DNA of 64,000 nucleotides from Terriglobia bacterium. GTDB lineage: Bacteria; Acidobacteriota; Terriglobia; JAJPHL01; JAPKYU01. This document shows positions 8,235 through 16,346 of the stretch, one piece after another. The notes beneath the pieces were generated by a model. It did no database searches. It had not been told where the DNA came from and worked only from the letters and a program-made list of their open reading frames with translations. Position 1 is the first letter of the stretch; each line of letters starts with the position of its first letter. A program made the position numbers and the translations under genes. The stretch is from the NCBI GenBank assembly GCA_965206645.1, contig CBDBKE010000003.1, forward strand, positions 640,001-704,000. The letters are read 5' to 3'.

Positions 8235-9536
8235 ATGCGCTATCTGCCCAAGTCGGAGTCGGAACGGCAGCAGATGCTGGAGTCGCTGGGACTCAGGCAC
8301 GTGGAGGAGCTGTTTGCCTCGATCCCCGACGAGGTCCGCTTACAGCGGGGGCTGAACATTCCCGATGGCATCTCTGAATTTGACCTCGTGCGGTATTTCC
8401 GCGAGTGGGCGCGGGAGAATGCGAGTGGTTATGTATCGTTCCTCGGCGCGGGGGTGTACCCGCATTTCCGGCCGGTGGTGGTGGATGCGCTGATCTCGCG
8501 CAGCGAATTTTACACCGCCTACACGCCCTACCAGGCGGAGATCTCCCAAGGCACGCTGCAATCCATCTTCGAGTTCCAGACCATGATCTGCCAGCTGACC
8601 GGGACCGAGGTGGCCAACGCCTCGATGTACGACGGCTCTAGCGCGCTGGCCGAGGCGGTACTGATGGCGGCGCGGATAACCCGGCGCTCGAGGGTGCTGG
8701 TGGCGCGCTCCGTCCACCCGGAATACCGGCAGGTGCTGGCCACCTACATACGCCATCAAGGGATTGAGGTGCGGGAGCTGGAATACGACCGCCGGGACGG
8801 CACGCTCGCACCGTTTTCGGTGCCGGAGGATCTGGCGGCGGTCGTCGTACAGTCCCCGAACTTCTTCGGTGTAGTGGAGGACGTGGAGCGGGCGGCGGAA
8901 ATCGCCCGCGCTTCCGGGGCGCTGCTAGTGGTGGCAATCGCAGAACCGGTCTCGCTGGGCGTGCTGCGGCCCCCGGCCGCTGCCGACATCGTCGCCATGG
9001 AGATTCAGGGCCTGGGTATTCCGGCCAGTTACGGCGGTCCCTACGCCGGGGTGATCGCCACGCGGGAGAAGTACGTGCGCAGCCTCCCCGGGCGCCTCGT
9101 CGGGCAGACCACCGACGTCGAGGGCCGCCCCGGCTTCTGCCTGACGCTGGCCACCCGCGAGCAGCATATTCGCCGCGAGAAGGCCACGTCCAACATCTGC
9201 ACCAACCAGGCGCTGTGCGCTCTGGCGGCTACCATCTTCATGACCGTCTACGGCAAGGAAGGCTTGCGGGAGCTGGCCCGCCACAACCTGGCCAAGGCGC
9301 ACTGCGCTGCCTCCGGCCTGAATCTACAGTTCTCCGGGCCTTTCTTTAACGAGTTCGTAGTGACCCTGAGGCCAGGCGAAGCCGACAGGAAGCTTCAGGC
9401 ACTGCGTGAGAAGAAGATTCTGGGCGGCCTGGACCTGAGGCCGTTCTACCCGGAACTGGGCGAGGCGCTGTTGCTGTGCGTGACCGAGGTCCACACCAGG
9501 GAGCAGCTTGACCAACTGGTCGAAGTGCTAGCATGA
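8235..9536 (+). CDS. gcvPA: Glycine dehydrogenase subunit 1
   Basis: YTAYTPYQAEISQG, REQHIRREKATSNICTNQ. Confidence 0.96.
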   Translation: MRYLPKSESERQQMLESLGLRHVEELFASIPDEVRLQRGLNIPDGISEFDLVRYFREWARENASGYVSFLGAGVYPHFRPVVVDALISRSEFYTAYTPYQAEISQGTLQSIFEFQTMICQLTGTEVANASMYDGSSALAEAVLMAARITRRSRVLVARSVHPEYRQVLATYIRHQGIEVRELEYDRRDGTLAPFSVPEDLAAVVVQSPNFFGVVEDVERAAEIARASGALLVVAIAEPVSLGVLRPPAAADIVAMEIQGLGIPASYGGPYAGVIATREKYVRSLPGRLVGQTTDVEGRPGFCLTLATREQHIRREKATSNICTNQALCALAATIFMTVYGKEGLRELARHNLAKAHCAASGLNLQFSGPFFNEFVVTLRPGEADRKLQALREKKILGGLDLRPFYPELGEALLLCVTEVHTREQLDQLVEVLA

Positions 9537-11122
9537 AGAAAGCCGCCTCCCACGTCAGCCACCATCTCTGCCGGCGCCACATCAGCCAAGATGAAGGGCT
9601 GATCTTTGAGCGCTCCTCGCCGGGCAAGCACGCCTGGCAGTTGCCGGCGCTGGAGGTGCCGGAGGTGGATCCGGTCGCGATGCTGGGTCAGGCCAATGTG
9701 CGGGCCGAAATTGCCGACTTCCCCGAGGTCAGCGAGGTGGAACTGGTGCGCCACTTCACTCGCCTCTCAAGCTGGAACTACGGGGTGGAAACGGGACTCT
9801 ACCCGCTGGGTTCCTGCACCATGAAGTACAACCCGAAGGTCAATGAAGTGGTGGCGCGTCTGGAAGGTCTTGCTGACCAGCACCCCTATCAGCCCGATGA
9901 GCTGGCCCAGGGCTGCTTGAAGATCCTGCGGCAGCTCTCCACTTACCTGCTGGAAATCACCGGTATGGATGCGGTGACGTTGCAGCCGGCTGCCGGCGCC
10001 CAGGGCGAGCTGACGGGCATCCTGCTGGTGCGCGCCTATCTTGAAGCGCAGGGGAACCCACGAAAGAAAATCCTGATCCCGGATTCGGCGCACGGAACCA
10101 ATCCGGCGACGGCATCGATAGCCGGGTACACGGTCGAGAACGTCCGCTCCAACGGTGACGGCCGCGTGGATCTGGAAGCGCTCGAGAAAGCTGTCACCGA
10201 ACAGGTTGCGGCGCTGATGATCACCAACCCCAACACGCTGGGGATTTTTGAACAGCAGATCGCCTCCATTGCTGATCTGCTGCATGCCCGGGGCGCCCAG
10301 CTCTACATGGACGGCGCCAACATGAATGCTCTGCTGGGCAAGACCCGTCCTGGCGACTTCGGGGTGGACGTGATGCACCTGAACCTGCACAAGACCTTTT
10401 CCACCCCGCACGGCGGCGGCGGTCCCGGGGCCGGCCCGGTTTGCGTGAAGAAACACCTGGAGCCGTACCTGCCGGTGCCGGTTCTGGAAGAAGGGCCGCA
10501 TGGCCGGCTGCGCCTGAACCACCAGCGGCCCAACTCCATTGGGCGGGTGCGCGCCTTCGCGGGCAACTTTGGCGTGCTGGTGCGCGCCCTGGCTTATGTT
10601 CTGGCGCACGGCGGCAACGGCCTCAGGGCGGTAGCTGAAGACGCCGTGCTCAACGCCAACTACATCCGCAGGCACCTGGAGGACGTTTACGAGCTGACGT
10701 ACCGCCAGGCGTCGCTCCACGAGTGCGTCTTCAGCGACCGGCTCCAGGCGCGCCACGGCGTGCGTACCGGCGACATCGCCAAGCGCCTCATTGATTACGG
10801 CTTTCACCCCTACACCGTCAGCTTCCCGCTGATCGTTCAGGGCGCGCTGATGATCGAGCCGACGGAAACCGAGAGCAAGCAGGAGCTGGATTTCTTCATT
10901 GAGGCGATGCGCGCGATCGCCCGTGAGGCGGAAGAAGAACCGGAGACGGTGCGCAACGCGCCGCACGCTACCCGGGTGGGCCGCCTGGACGAAGTGGCGG
11001 CCGCGCGCCGGCCCATCCTGCGCTGGAAACCGCAGCTGCCCGTCGCCCAGAGCCCCGTGACCGAGCCCGACGCCACCGAACAGCAACAGCCGGAGGAATT
11101 GACCGCAAGAAAATCTCCCTAG
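9533..11122 (+). CDS. gcvPB: Glycine dehydrogenase subunit 2
   Basis: PLGSCTMKYNP, PLP site HLNLHKTFSTPHGGGGPG. Confidence 0.96.
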   Translation: MKKAASHVSHHLCRRHISQDEGLIFERSSPGKHAWQLPALEVPEVDPVAMLGQANVRAEIADFPEVSEVELVRHFTRLSSWNYGVETGLYPLGSCTMKYNPKVNEVVARLEGLADQHPYQPDELAQGCLKILRQLSTYLLEITGMDAVTLQPAAGAQGELTGILLVRAYLEAQGNPRKKILIPDSAHGTNPATASIAGYTVENVRSNGDGRVDLEALEKAVTEQVAALMITNPNTLGIFEQQIASIADLLHARGAQLYMDGANMNALLGKTRPGDFGVDVMHLNLHKTFSTPHGGGGPGAGPVCVKKHLEPYLPVPVLEEGPHGRLRLNHQRPNSIGRVRAFAGNFGVLVRALAYVLAHGGNGLRAVAEDAVLNANYIRRHLEDVYELTYRQASLHECVFSDRLQARHGVRTGDIAKRLIDYGFHPYTVSFPLIVQGALMIEPTETESKQELDFFIEAMRAIAREAEEEPETVRNAPHATRVGRLDEVAAARRPILRWKPQLPVAQSPVTEPDATEQQQPEELTARKSP

Positions 11123-11241: not shown

Positions 11242-11481
11242 CCACAAGCACACAAACATAGGCAACGTTCTTCCGGGACATAACACCAGCAGCTTTGTTT
11301 TTCATCTCGCAAAATGCCGCGCGGGAGGCGCTGAAACCAAGTAAACTGAAAAAAGAACCTGGAATTTCAGGCTTTGGGCAGGCGGCTTCTGGTGGGAGCA
11401 ATGCCGAGGCGGTCAAGCCCGGCTTGGCAGAAGATTTCGACGGCACGCAGCATTGTTGCGAAATCGGGCTGCAAGATCGGC

Positions 11482-14418
11482 ATGAACAAACTGGGACAAT
11501 CAACAATCCTTCCGATTTGCCTGGTCCTGGCAGCCATCTTGATTGCCCAGAACCCGCCGGTGCAACCCCCGGGCTCGGCCGATTCGGCGCAGGGCGAGAC
11601 GCCTGCGGCCTCGGCTCCCAAGCGCGCCGGAACCACGGATGCAGCACGGCTGGAAGCAGTGGAGGAGTTGTCCGAATCTTTGGCCAACGACCTATTGGAT
11701 CTGTCGCTCGCCGTGCGGGATCGGGAGGCGGAGCGAGTGGCCGAGTACGTTCCAGCCCAGTTGTCGGCTACCGCCTTCTGGTCCACTCCGCTGCCGGTTA
11801 TGAAGGAAGTGAGATGGGTCGCCAGGCACGGATGGACGGCGGATGATCACAGTTCCGGGCACTCCTCGCAACGCAGCGCGCGCTCCCGCGCGGTGAAACA
11901 CCGCATGCCCAGGGAGGAGTTCTTGGGGGCGTTGTTCGCCTTCCTGGATCACTTCCAGGAGATCGAAGACGCGCGCTTCAAGGTGTCGGGAGCCCAATTC
12001 GCTGATTCGGCTGATGTCGAGATGGAGGCGAATGTTCCCACCGCCAAAGTGGGTTCCGAAGGAACAGCACGCCTGAAGTTTTACCTGGTGGGCCGCGACA
12101 CTGACGGGCAGCGCGAGTGGACGCGGGGAGCGGCCGGGGTCGCGGTCCGTCGGGCGGCCAACGGGCGTTGGCAGTTTGAATCGTTCGAACTGCTGAGCCT
12201 GGATTCCATGCTGGCCACCACCGATCTGTTCTCGGAAGTCTCCGTGCCGGTCGGCGTGGCCGCCAGCCTGCCTTCTTTTGCGGAGCGGGGAGGACCCAGC
12301 TTCGCCTGGTACGGGGCGGCGGCCGGGGATTTCAATCTTGACGGCTGGATCGATCTGTTCGTGACCTCGCCGGATCGCAATTATCTTTACTTGAACGACG
12401 CACAGGGCCGGTTCCGTGACGCCTCCCTGGAAGCGGGCGTGGAGCTGCTCGACCGCGGGGTGGCGCCCCTGGTTCTCGATTACGACAATGACGGCGATTC
12501 CGACGTGTTCCTCTCCTCGGTTGGGCACCAGATGCTTTTGGAGAACCGGCAGGTGCCGGACGGGAAGCTGGAACTTCGCGATGTTTCCTGGAAAGCCGGG
12601 GTGGGCCGGCAGGCGATAGGGTTCAGCGCCGTGGCTGGGGACGTGAACGGCGACGGGTATACCGACATCTACGTTGCCTGCTACAACCACTTCGGCCGGG
12701 TGACGCCGGATTCCTGGTACCGGGCCACCAATGGCACGCCGAACTTGCTGTACATCAATCAGGGCGATGGCACCTTCCGCGAGGAAGCGGCCCGCTGGGG
12801 CGTGGATGACCGGCGCTGGAGTTACGCAGCCGCCTTCGCTGACGTCAACAGGGACGGGCGCCTGGACCTGTACGTGGCCAACGACTTTGGCGAAAACGCC
12901 CTGTTCATCCACCACGGAGACAAGTTCGTGAATGAGGCGCGGGAGCGCGGCGTTGTGGACCCCGGCAACGGCATGGGCGTCTCCTTCGGCGATTACGACA
13001 ACGACGGAGAGCTCGATCTGCACGTCACCAACATGTCCTCGACCGCAGGCAACCGCATCGTGTCGCGGCTGTTTCCCGGCGCTGGCGCCGGGAACAACGT
13101 GTACCGGAAGCTGGCCTCCGGCAACAACCTGTATCGGAATGCCGGCAACGGCTACTACCGGGACGTGACCGCCGAGAGCGCTGGCTTCTCCGGCGGATGG
13201 GCCTGGGGGGGGGGGTTCCTCGACTTCGATAACGATGGCTGGGAGGATCTGCTGACCCCCAATGGGTTCCTCTCCGGCAGTTCCATGAAGGACACCTGAA
13301 GTCAGTTCTGGCGTCAGGTCGTGGCGCAAGACAAGAATCCGAAACAGGGGCAGGGCGCGCTCCGTGCCGACCAAATGCGCCTGATCGCCCAACAGGGATT
13401 CTCATTTAGCGGGTACGAACGCGATCTGCTCTCCCTGAACCTGGGCACGGGCAAGTATTTGGACGTCTCCGGAATCTCTGGAATTGACTCGATTAGCGAT
13501 GGCCGCGCGGCGGTGTTTGCCGATTTCGATAACGACGGCGATCTGGACGTGTTTCTAACCACCATCCAAGGGGAAGCACACCTGCTGTTTCGCAACAATA
13601 TCGGGCAGGCGAATAACTTCCTGCGGATCGTGTTGGAAGGCAGCCGGGAGCTGGGCCGCGACGCCTATGGGGCTGTGGTCCGCCTGCGGACCTCAGCCGG
13701 GACGATGACCAAGATCAAAAGCGGCGGCTCAGGCTTCATCGCGCAGCATGACCCGCGCCTGCTATTCGGGCTGGGGTCGGAGGAGCGTGCCGAATGGATC
13801 GAGGTGTCCTGGCCCAATGGGGAAGTCGAGCGATTCCAGGCCGACGCCCGGGCCGGCTCGACGCTGCTGCTGCGCGCCGGAGCCGGGCGCGCCGAAGTGC
13901 TCGCGCTCGGCCGCGCCCAACTGCCTGATCCGCTCACCCGCGCGGAAACCTTTGCCCGCAAGCTGAAGATCAGCGTGGGCAAACCCATGCCCGATCTGGC
14001 TCTGAAAACCTTGGACGGAGAGGCAACTTCCCTCTACAAGCAGCTCCGCCCGGGCCGCCGGGCGCTCATCAATGTCTGGGCCACCTGGTGCGCGCCCTGC
14101 ATCCTGGAGATGCCGGAGCTGGAAAAACTCCGGCCGCAGCTTTCGGCCAGCGGGGTCGACTTGATCGGCCTCAACGTGGATACCGAACCCGACGCCGACA
14201 TCGGCCGGTTTGTAGCCGACACCGGCATCAGCTATCCGATCTATATCGGTGGGATTCCGGCTGTCGAACAGTTGTATGCTTCCGATGAACTCTCCGTGCC
14301 GTTGTCGGTTCTGCTGGACGAGAACGGCGCCGTAGCCGAAGTGATTCCCGGCTGGTCCGAGGAAACCCGCCGCCGCTTCTCTGCGCTGGCCGGCAACCAA
14401 GCCAGCGACGGGACGTAA
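11482..14418 (+). CDS. Predicted exported selenoprotein (~978 aa): NTF2-like region + FG-GAP/CRTAC1 propeller + Sec at codon 606 + ASPIC/UnbV + TlpA thioredoxin
   Basis: In-frame TGA 13297-13299 (MKDT*SQFWRQVVAQ); six DxDxDG blades before it and a seventh after; SECIS-like hairpin; C-terminal NVWATWCAPC. Confidence 0.8.
13205..13215 (+). repeat. G11 homopolymer inside the coding sequence (W-G-G-G)
   Basis: TGG GGG GGG GGG TTC. Confidence 0.85.
13307..13331 (+). promoter_or_regulatory. Bacterial SECIS-like stem-loop
   Basis: TCT-G-GCGTCA-[GGTCG]-TGGCGC-A-AGA; the loop starts 17 nt after the UGA and begins with G; CAGGUC also occurs in the E. coli fdhF SECIS. Confidence 0.75.
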
Positions 14419-14449: not shown

Positions 14450-14481
14450 TTGACAAGCTGGATCACAATATGTATATACAT
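14450..14481 (+). promoter_or_regulatory. Sigma70 promoter overlapped by a palindromic MarR-type operator
   Basis: TTGACA (14450)-17 bp-TATATA; perfect palindrome ATGTATATACAT at 14470-14481. Confidence 0.65.
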
Positions 14482-14487
14482 CTAACT

Positions 14488-14955
14488 ATGGCTGCCGAGA
14501 CGGTAAGGGAACGGCAGAAGGGCCTGCCAGGGCTGCTGCCGCTGCCCTGCGCCTGCGCCAACCTGCGCCGGGCCGCGCGGGCTGTGACGCAGCTTTATGC
14601 CGAGGAGTTTCGACCCATCGGACTGGAGCCGACGCAGTTCACCTCGCTGATGGCGCTGGAGACCTGGGGGGAACTCACCCAGGGCCAACTGGCCGAGAGA
14701 CTGGCCATTGACAGCACCACGCTGACCCGTACGCTAGCCCCTTTGCGCCGCCGCGGTTGGATCCAGGCCAGGCCCGGCCCGGACCAGCGCGAGCGCCGCT
14801 TGCGGCTGACACCAGCCGGCCGCCGACAGCTTGCACGTGTCCGCCCATATTGGGAACGGGCGCAGCGGCGCCTGCGCCGAACCCTGGGCGAAGACGGCTG
14901 GAACCGGCTGCAAGCCGGTTTGGTCGACGTGACACGAGCAGTGCAGAGGGCATGA
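14488..14955 (+). CDS. MarR family transcriptional regulator
   Basis: CACANLRRAARAVTQLY, IDSTTLTRTL, DQRERRLRLTPAG. Confidence 0.9.
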   Translation: MAAETVRERQKGLPGLLPLPCACANLRRAARAVTQLYAEEFRPIGLEPTQFTSLMALETWGELTQGQLAERLAIDSTTLTRTLAPLRRRGWIQARPGPDQRERRLRLTPAGRRQLARVRPYWERAQRRLRRTLGEDGWNRLQAGLVDVTRAVQRA

Positions 14956-15005
14956 TTTTTTTGCGACATATAGATGTATGCGCATCCTATTTCCGAGAGG
15001 CAACG

Positions 15006-16346
15006 ATGCAACTAGCCGAACATCCGACAGTGAAGCAGTTCCAGAAAAACCAGGCGGCAGGTGTGCTGCCGACTCGCCCGGCGAAGATCGAAGCAGCGTG
15101 GCTGCAGGGGCTCTGCCAGGAGGCCGGCGCCGAGGAGGTGGGTTTTGTCGAGCTCGATCGAGAGAAAATCGCGGATCAGCGAGACGATATTCGGGCCGCC
15201 TTTCCCCGCGCCAGGACGCTGATCAGTTTTGTTCTGCGAATGAACCGGGAGAATGTGCGGAGCCCGGCTCGCTCGATTGCCAACCTGGAGTTCCACCATA
15301 CGGGCGACGAGGTGAACGAAGTTGCCCGGCGGATCGTGGCGGCGCTGGAGCGGGAAGGGGTGCGTGCAATGAACGGGGCGATGGGTTTTCCCATGGAAAT
15401 GGACCGCTGGCCCGGCAAGCTCTGGGTGGTGTCGCACAAGCCGGTGGCGGTGGCCGCCGGTTTAGGCCGGATGGGGATTCACCGTAACGTGATTCACCCC
15501 AAGTTCGGCAATTTCATTCTGCTGGGCACGGTGGTCACCGATGCGGAGGTGAGCGAGTACTCCCGGCCCATCGACTACAACCCCTGCCTGGAATGCAAGC
15601 TGTGTGTTTCGGCCTGCCCGACCGGGGCGATCGGTCCCGACGGGCATTTCAACTTCGCGGCCTGCTATACGCACAACTATCGGGAGTTCATGGGCGGATT
15701 CACCGACTGGGTGGAAAACGTCGCCGACAGCAAGAACGCCCAGCAGTACCGAGAGAAGGTCAGCGACCCGGAAACCGTCTCGCTGTGGCAGAGTCTGGGG
15801 TTCGGGCCCAACTACAAGGCCGCCTACTGTCTCTCGGTCTGTCCTGCCGGCGAAGATGTGATTGCACCGTTTCTCACCGAGCGGAAGCAGTTCCTCGAGG
15901 ACGTCGTGAAACCTCTGCAGAGCAAGCCAGAAACGGTCTACGTACGACCCGGTTCCGATGCCGTGGCGTACGTGCAGCGACGTTTTCCTCACAAGAAACT
16001 CAAGGCAGTGGGCAACGGCCTGCGGCCTCTGTCCATCGCGCAGTTCCTGGACGGACTGGGCTTCACCTTCGAGCGGGGTCAGTCGGAAGGCCTCGATGCC
16101 ACCTATCACTTCACCTTCACCGGTGAGGAGGAGCGCAAGGCCACAGTGACCATTCGCCACAAGACGCTGCGCGTCGAGGACGGGCACGTGGGAAAAGCGG
16201 ACCTCCGTCTTCAGGCTGACAGTCGCACCTGGCTCGGGTTTCTCGCCAAAGAGCGGAACCTGGTGTGGGCTTTGCTCAGCCGCAAGATTCGGCTCAAAGG
16301 GTCACCACGACTGTTGGTAGCATTCGGGAAGTGCTTCCCTTCTTAG
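15006..16346 (+). CDS. QueG/reductive-dehalogenase-like 4Fe-4S protein with C-terminal SCP2 lipid-binding domain
   Basis: SHKPVAVAAGLGRMG...HPKFGNFILLGTVVTD, CLECKLCVSACP, YCLSVCP; SCP2-like tail (YHFTFTGE...KIRLKGS); SD GAGAGG before ATG 15006. Confidence 0.8.
   Translation: MQLAEHPTVKQFQKNQAAGVLPTRPAKIEAAWLQGLCQEAGAEEVGFVELDREKIADQRDDIRAAFPRARTLISFVLRMNRENVRSPARSIANLEFHHTGDEVNEVARRIVAALEREGVRAMNGAMGFPMEMDRWPGKLWVVSHKPVAVAAGLGRMGIHRNVIHPKFGNFILLGTVVTDAEVSEYSRPIDYNPCLECKLCVSACPTGAIGPDGHFNFAACYTHNYREFMGGFTDWVENVADSKNAQQYREKVSDPETVSLWQSLGFGPNYKAAYCLSVCPAGEDVIAPFLTERKQFLEDVVKPLQSKPETVYVRPGSDAVAYVQRRFPHKKLKAVGNGLRPLSIAQFLDGLGFTFERGQSEGLDATYHFTFTGEEERKATVTIRHKTLRVEDGHVGKADLRLQADSRTWLGFLAKERNLVWALLSRKIRLKGSPRLLVAFGKCFPS

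Follow-up and report, generated by a model that had tools for sequence, protein, structure and literature searches.

An in-frame UGA probably read as selenocysteine in an exported propeller protein with a TlpA-like domain from a Terriglobia bacterium

A single UGA codon that parts two open reading frames (ORFs) in the Terriglobia bacterium assembly GCA_965206645.1 is understood here as, very probably, a codon for selenocysteine (Sec), and the two ORFs as one gene for an exported protein of 978 residues in which an NTF2-like domain, an FG-GAP β-propeller, a UnbV/ASPIC domain and a TlpA-like thioredoxin (Trx)-fold domain follow one another. The gene lies on the forward strand of contig CBDBKE010000003.1, within positions 640,001 to 704,000; that whole stretch of 64,000 nucleotides (nt) is referred to as the window, and positions given without a contig label are counted from its first letter. 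An earlier interpretation made from the letters alone (the sequence-only reading) had proposed one exported selenoprotein of about 978 aa, and the proposal draws support from conservation of the TGA among relatives, a covarying hairpin downstream of it, the Sec machinery of the genome, a homologue with Cys at the same place and public sequencing runs.

Results

Conservation of the in-frame TGA

The TGA (13297-13299) is the only one in frame with both ORF 11374..13299 and ORF 13321..14418, as had been noticed from the sequence, and translation through it gives the peptide expected, ...NGFLSGSSMKDT-U-SQFWRQVVAQ.... Counted from the ATG at 11482, which sets the residue numbering used throughout, the joined gene 11482..14418 (+) comprises 978 codons followed by TAA (14416-14418), codon 606 being the TGA (Sec606). 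TGA is a normal stop elsewhere, ending 17 of the 41 mechanical ORFs of at least 300 aa in the window; the gene under study ends in TAA.

Orthologues were taken as the best 80 loci of a scan with one genome per species, showing 64-98% identity over 333 residues and mostly labelled Pyrinomonadaceae, Blastocatellia or Acidobacteriota. TGA stands at the Sec column in all 80, with TAA, TAG or a sense codon in none. The frame after it is open for 280-411 codons in every locus, shorter only at contig ends, and the C-terminal C..C motif is likewise present in 80/80, as TWCxPC in all except two loci with TYCIPC. Two genomes of the same genus, G001 and G003 (protein identity 93% and 91%), share both the TGA and an identical hairpin. 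The recurrence of TGA and hairpin in every one of the 80 orthologues puts the observation far beyond chance. Whether homologues would carry TGA or Cys at this column beside a conserved hairpin had been posed as a question by the sequence-only reading, and the answer is affirmative on each count, the Cys form (P0002, described below) being a single one within the Sec clade.

A broader view of the phylum is consistent with this pattern. Among 401 genomes drawn evenly from it, 46 (29 of 228 genera) gave a match at E <= 1e-60. One TGA is found in 45 of the 46 places at E <= 2e-95, the window itself among the 45, where the count is of stops within the match and not a reading of the column itself; the sole place without TGA (G420) reads TCC (Ser) and lacks a Trx domain. 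In the protein databases the gene is mostly seen in part: of the 120 best listed matches, 75 are ORFs of 559-677 residues that end exactly at ...DT, some of them under the name 'VCBS repeat-containing protein', and these entries are N-terminal halves cut by gene callers.

The TGA codon is covered by contigs from four public runs, which belong to three studies and include two metatranscriptome libraries, and at 13297-13299 no other letter is listed in the four runs, so that the sequencing error considered earlier as a possible refutation finds no trace in them. Variants occur close by, 13293 C>T, 13296 C>T and 13302 T>C, all at third positions and all synonymous (Asp, Thr, Ser). One RNA-library contig (X13 record 15) bridges the codon, extending over 13153-13800; the RNA-library contigs leave parts of 12800-13800 uncovered.

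Four loci call for separate mention. L025 (G002:C101:2-1228), from a 62%-complete genome of the same genus, has only the N-terminal 404 residues on its contig; its match shows one TGA that cannot be the Sec codon and may precede the true start, the query having begun 36 codons before the ATG. L057, L108 and L120, which belong to the 80 loci, come from bins labelled Nitrospinota, Hyphomicrobium and Heliobacteriaceae. They share 67-71% identity with the query, their contigs measure 1.5-5.1 kb, and the labels outside Acidobacteriota may reflect mis-binning or transfer.

A covarying hairpin downstream of the UGA

The sequence-only reading had described a hairpin directly 3' of the UGA with its loop 17 nt further on, and the sequence at 13311-13327, GCGTCA[GGTCG]TGGCGC, agrees: a spacer of 11 nt is followed by a stem of 6 bp, including one U-G pair, that closes a 5-nt loop beginning 17 nt past the UGA. 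The selenocysteine insertion sequence (SECIS) of E. coli fdhF contains CAGGUC. Alignment of 81 sequences, 67 of them distinct, gives 469 cells over seven pairs; standard pairs occupy 467 of these (99.6%), and slid controls pair in 3-67% of cells. At pair 24-34 (UA 56, GU 8, AU 1, CG 1, UG 1) the changes couple a synonymous third position of Arg with the first position of Thr, Ser or Ala. Loop positions 27 and 30 covary as well (GC 43, AU 23, CG 1), and G28, U29 and G31 are invariant in the loop region. The covariation score of 0.223 compares with 0.084 in shuffles and was reached by none of 500.

Relatives that differ at the codon are informative with regard to the pairing. Eight homologues encode almost the same peptide (SFFWRQVV) with a sense codon in place of the TGA; of their 56 cells only 31 pair, each homologue retaining 2-5 of the 7 pairs. 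Two distant paralogues (about 41% identity) with TGA at the same column show 7/7 pairs and the identical GGUCG loop. The hairpin thus appears to track the TGA and to be lost or degraded alongside sense codons. In the bacterial SECIS (bSECIS) model of PMC13188914, as presented there, a loop of 3-9 nt with G in its first two positions is closed by a stem of 4-16 bp, the loop lies 16-37 nt from the UGA and the minimum free energy (MFE) is <= -7.5 kcal/mol. The corresponding values here, 5 nt, G, 6 bp, 17 nt and -10.8 kcal/mol (45-nt downstream segment), fall within all of these bounds.

Selenocysteine machinery and other TGA genes in the genome

The genome (97.9% complete, 4 contigs) encodes the full set of Sec factors, selA, selB, selC and selD, for which the sequence-only reading had recommended a search. 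The scores for selA (441 bits), selB (309.5 bits), selD (354 bits) and tRNA-Sec (78.5 bits, anticodon tca by ARAGORN) are all above the curated cut-offs; the tRNA-Sec gene is found at G000:C3:716855-716945 (-), on the contig of the window and about 12.9 kb past the window end.

Two further genes of the genome contain an in-frame TGA. The selD gene itself, G000:C2:761488-762411 (+), has one of its own (…KASG[TGA]ASKL…), with a 7-bp hairpin and a GGU loop 13 nt further; selD is itself a selenoprotein gene. A frame resembling formate dehydrogenase, of the molybdopterin-oxidoreductase type (G000:C4:1408452-1409738 (+)), contains a single TGA in frame. Its score stays under the TIGR01553 cut-off; it is probably the third selenoprotein gene of the genome.

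Domain architecture and predicted structure

Six Dx[DN]xDG motifs precede the TGA (first residues 283, 333, 387, 454, 504 and 581) and one follows it (first residue 681), matching the earlier account of six FG-GAP blade motifs upstream and a seventh downstream. Pfam models above their cut-offs are FG-GAP_3 (139 bits), FG-GAP, UnbV_ASPIC (PF07593; 50.6 bits, cut-off 23.4), Redoxin (64.3 bits) and AhpC-TSA (56.7 bits). No NCBIfam model reaches its cut-off for the whole protein, and the equivalogs TlpA (61.2 of 230 bits) and ResA (75.4 of 170 bits) stay far under theirs; the C-terminal domain is TlpA-like, not TlpA. Its WCAPC motif is complete, with Cys870 (14089-14091) and Cys873 (14098-14100) both encoded by TGC, and Sec stands about 264 residues upstream, outside the thioredoxin motif as previously stated.

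An AlphaFold2 model built from 36 sequences (mean predicted local distance difference test, pLDDT, 88.8; predicted template-modelling score, pTM, 0.88) was compared with known structures in Foldseek. Its best match is murine CRTAC1 (9etn_A; E 2.7e-28, TMt 0.73, 22% identity), the UnbV/ASPIC part aligning with CRTAC1 373-491; ResA/TlpA oxidoreductases come next (4nmu, 1su9, 1jfu; E 1e-8 to 1e-11), and phmmer against Protein Data Bank (PDB) sequences agrees. The N-terminal domain, without a Pfam match, was folded alone (pLDDT 88.5) and gave 39 PDB matches at E <= 0.001, the best being 3ef8 (E 3.9e-5) and 3hx8_B (TMt 0.78), with LinA and scytalone dehydratase also among them (TMt 0.60-0.78, identity 9-14%). 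These matches bear out the NTF2-like fold suggested earlier for this region.

With respect to Sec606, the model departs from the sequence-only reading, which had put the residue in a loop of a Ca-binding propeller. Sec606 is predicted to be the first residue of a helix (606-616; DSSP on the model) within an insertion between blades 6 and 7, a second insertion helix comprising residues 629-638. Model pLDDT is 88 for residues 601-610 and 65 for 621-630. The insertion (about residues 596-660) is missing from simpler family members, as seen in gaps of L038 and L040, and lies outside the sequence alignment to CRTAC1. At the N-terminus the model gives a helix (10-22) of low pLDDT, and in orthologues too a basic n-region comes first and is accompanied by a hydrophobic stretch; we infer from these features that the protein is probably exported through a Sec-type (secretory pathway) signal peptide.

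Residues at the Sec column and the family tree

The Sec-clade protein set consists of 67 full-length sequences with a minimum pairwise identity of 52% and a median of 62%. Its only conserved Cys/Sec columns are U606, C870 and C873, each in 67 of 67 proteins. Around the codon, W610 is invariant and D604, T605, S607 and R611 are nearly so, even in non-Sec relatives. The Cys form introduced above, P0002 (961 aa, with Trx domain), reads SMKDT[C]SHFWRQV and falls within the Sec clade, where L112 is its sister (SH-aLRT, the Shimodaira-Hasegawa-like approximate likelihood ratio test, 97). Of the 45 listed database matches that are not truncated, the motif was located in 24, and P0002 alone shows Cys; the distant paralogue L034 likewise carries Cys at this position.

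The tree (LG+G4, quick, unrooted) comprises 57 rows: the window, every third of the 66 complete loci, 10 genome loci and the 24 database matches, out of 41 tried, that yielded the motif. Sec appears at three places on it, in the main clade, in L109/L118 and in the long paralogues L132/L133, requiring at least 4 changes, which on an unrooted tree may be gains or losses. The long paralogues, L132 (G184:C1:3516000-3522500) and L133 (G285:C10:124500-131000), have open frames of about 1330-1400 aa at 41-43% identity, carry TGA at the same column (TKDL[TGA]SFFWRQVV) and share the GGUCG hairpin. Among long-paralogue places of the phylum sample, 6 of 7 show one TGA.

Feature coordinates and flanking genes

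The features of the gene are collected in Table 1. Flanking it are ORFs that translation, judged by eye, suggests to be a glycine dehydrogenase subunit upstream (9533-11122 (+)) and, downstream, a MarR-type regulator (14470-14955 (+)) and an Fe-S protein with a C-terminal lipid-carrier-like part (14757-16346 (+)). No conserved neighbour gene was found among 610 clustered flanking ORFs of the 80 loci, the named flanking ORFs not being kept; the largest cluster, of 18 loci, looks like antisense, non-coding ORFs.

Table 1. Features of the predicted selenoprotein gene, in window positions
Feature	Position	Strand	Basis
Whole predicted selenoprotein gene	11482..14418	+	ATG to TAA; same-length open frame through TGA in 66 complete orthologous loci
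Probable Sec-type signal peptide, MNKLGQSTILPICLVLAAILIAQ	11482..11550	+	Read by eye from sequence
NTF2-like (SnoaL / ketosteroid-isomerase-like) alpha+beta cone domain	11635..12231	+	Domain model, Foldseek
FG-GAP beta-propeller, seven Dx[DN]xDG motifs	12304..13611	+	Pfam, Foldseek
Helical insertion between blades 6 and 7 bearing the predicted Sec; residues 596-660	13267..13461	+	DSSP on model
UGA very probably decoded as selenocysteine (Sec606)	13297..13299	+	Conservation, runs
bSECIS hairpin, stem GCGUCA/UGGCGC, loop GGUCG	13311..13327	+	Sequence, covariation
UnbV/ASPIC domain	13663..13845	+	Pfam PF07593, CRTAC1 alignment
TlpA/ResA-like thioredoxin-fold domain with WCAPC	13975..14361	+	Pfam, Foldseek, phmmer

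Discussion

Readings of the UGA codon

Decoding of the UGA as Sec would proceed by the hairpin, 11 nt downstream, recruiting SelB bound to Sec-tRNA(Sec), whereupon the ribosome would insert Sec and continue; partial termination at the UGA might release a 605-residue by-product. Several observations weigh against this interpretation or limit its reach. The evidence for Sec is all comparative. The conserved peptide FWRQVV imposes part of the hairpin by itself. A 71-nt fold is unexceptional against shuffles (z = -0.37), and its MFE structure engages the UGA region in pairing rather than the hairpin described, which does form when the sequence is cut otherwise (e.g. 45 nt, -10.8 kcal/mol). The RNA-library contigs may hold DNA, so what they establish is the presence of the TGA and not its transcription. 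Residues at the column in listed full-length homologues are diverse, S 10, A 3, D 2 and E 2, with C, R, V, L, T, Q and N one each; Ser, the commonest non-Sec residue, is one base away from TGA, and three of the listed non-Sec homologues (V, S, L) retain the Trx domain. The occurrence of residues other than Sec or Cys in the wider family suggests that Sec is dispensable for whatever the family does in general. Lastly, the gene neighbourhood holds no adjacent CcdA and no pointer to a pathway.

Three explanations would do without Sec altogether. A gene truly split in two, with a stop at the UGA and a restart at the GTG of 13321, is how gene callers treat it (75 of the 120 listed database proteins end at ...DT), and the GTG does lie 21 nt downstream of the TGA. 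The seven codons between TGA and GTG (SQFWRQV) are, however, kept as protein in sense-codon homologues of 32-40% identity, the stop is always TGA (80/80 loci), the start codon that a restart would need lies within reach of the covarying hairpin and overlaps it, and the downstream part would be left with one orphan propeller blade and without a signal peptide; we consider two separate proteins very improbable. A lone stop in an otherwise intact gene could also resemble a very recent nonsense mutation or a miscalled base, an explanation to which we attach next to no weight: the TGA is shared by 80 of 80 species with proteins that differ by up to 48%, the frame is intact downstream in all of them and the codon is without variant in four runs from three studies. 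Leaky read-through of UGA exists among bacteria, and near-cognate insertion of Trp, Cys or Arg, or a suppressor tRNA, could in principle yield the same full-length chain. Such decoding would leave without explanation a hairpin of bSECIS geometry at the canonical distance, covarying and with an invariant G-U in its loop, which moreover tracks the TGA; the Sec machinery is complete, and the sole tRNA with a tca anticodon that ARAGORN found is tRNA-Sec. Read-through by another amino acid is accordingly held to be most unlikely.

A possible role of the selenocysteine

Granted that Sec is inserted, a function may be sketched tentatively, at rather less than even likelihood, as an electron relay: Sec606 would be the reactive centre, Cys870/Cys873 would re-reduce it, and a CcdA/DsbD-type transporter would supply the electrons. 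An extracytoplasmic selenol/thiol relay is suggested because U606, C870 and C873 are the only conserved redox residues. From its position at a helix N-terminus, Sec606 would attack either an oxidant or an oxidised substrate, and its reduction afterwards would pass through a selenenylsulfide with the cysteines of the fused TlpA-like domain, which in turn would take electrons across the membrane from the transporter. The NTF2-like domain might bind the substrate, as the sequence-only reading proposed. One DsbD_TM/CcdA gene (60 bits) is present in the genome. That Sec606 and the fused CxxC constitute a self-contained relay, and with it the first catalytic function for the bacterial CRTAC1/ASPIC-UnbV family, is a possibility that we advance with marked reserve. 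If it were true, Sec at one column in three branches, the paralogues of ~1350 residues included, would mark the helix N-terminus as the active site of the family, and the protein would be an exported selenoenzyme with its reactive selenol on a β-propeller and not in a thioredoxin fold.

The main rival to the relay accepts Sec and assigns it another task, that of a soft-metal or metalloid ligand or of a sensor, with the CxxC acting elsewhere, on other periplasmic clients, or only keeping the selenol reduced. Retention of the Trx domain in homologues with S, A, E, V or L at the column makes the two parts separable, the matched TlpA structures 4txo and 4txv are complexes with a copper chaperone and cytochrome oxidase subunit II, and the catalogue of PMC13188914 includes several metal-linked selenoproteins. 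Near the site there is no second conserved soft ligand, be it Cys or a His beside Sec, which speaks against metal binding. A helix N-terminus, furthermore, is the typical location of redox-active Cys or Sec. We regard the metal or sensor role as possible, though rather unlikely. A potentially reactive residue combined with a fused reductase domain would offer a handle on the function of bacterial CRTAC1-like proteins.

Relation to known systems

Our literature search found no paper describing a selenoprotein family of the FG-GAP, CRTAC1 or UnbV type, although supplementary tables may list one. Table 1 of the May 2026 review PMC13188914 (119 families/subfamilies) has no FG-GAP, CRTAC1 or UnbV entry, and in the main texts of PMC13188914, PMC13326102 and PMC12013277 (the review, BSepDB and deep-Sep) FG-GAP, VCBS, CRTAC and propeller are absent; their supplements may list the family. 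The main text of Kim et al. 2016 (PMC4807772) likewise contains neither ASPIC nor FG-GAP and treats no family of this sort, its supplement being another place where one may be listed. Measured against those main texts and that table, the protein is a member of an uncatalogued, widespread selenoprotein family of soil bacteria. Its recognition corrects many annotations and enlarges the selenoproteome of soil Acidobacteriota, and it presents Sec outside the usual contexts of thioredoxin folds or metal centres.

The protein joins elements that are individually familiar. To our knowledge, CRTAC1 is not a selenoprotein. The likeness to the CRTAC1/ASPIC-UnbV family (murine 9etn) consists in an FG-GAP propeller followed by a UnbV/ASPIC domain (Pfam PF13517, PF07593), to which the present protein adds the N-terminal NTF2-like domain, the C-terminal TlpA-like domain and the helical insertion bearing the predicted Sec. 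With oxidoreductases of the TlpA/ResA/CcmG type it shares a thioredoxin fold with WCxPC; what sets it apart is that this domain forms part of a large fused propeller protein. Selenoproteins with a thioredoxin fold are on record: Table 1 of PMC13188914 names UGC-containing TlpA, Redoxin UxxC and thiol-disulfide isomerase-like UxxC, all with Sec in the Trx motif. An exported thioredoxin-fold domain is common to these catalogued TlpA/redoxin selenoproteins and the present one; unlike the catalogued entries, it keeps both Cys in the motif (67/67), with Sec about 264 residues upstream, in the propeller.

The recoding of the UGA, for its part, is of the classical bacterial kind. It resembles the SelB/SECIS system, with E. 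coli fdhF as archetype, in the UGA, in the downstream hairpin within the ORF and in the presence of selA/B/C/D, and it resembles the consensus bSECIS, as set out in PMC13188914, in the small apical loop, in the G within its first two positions followed by U and in the 17-nt spacing. It differs from the classical bSECIS in that loop positions 27/30 covary (GC/AU/CG) round the invariant G-U, and in the extra invariant G31. The E. coli archetype is a molybdoenzyme, and the host protein here is a propeller. The mechanism of recoding is therefore ordinary; what is unusual is the large exported propeller protein in which it is found.

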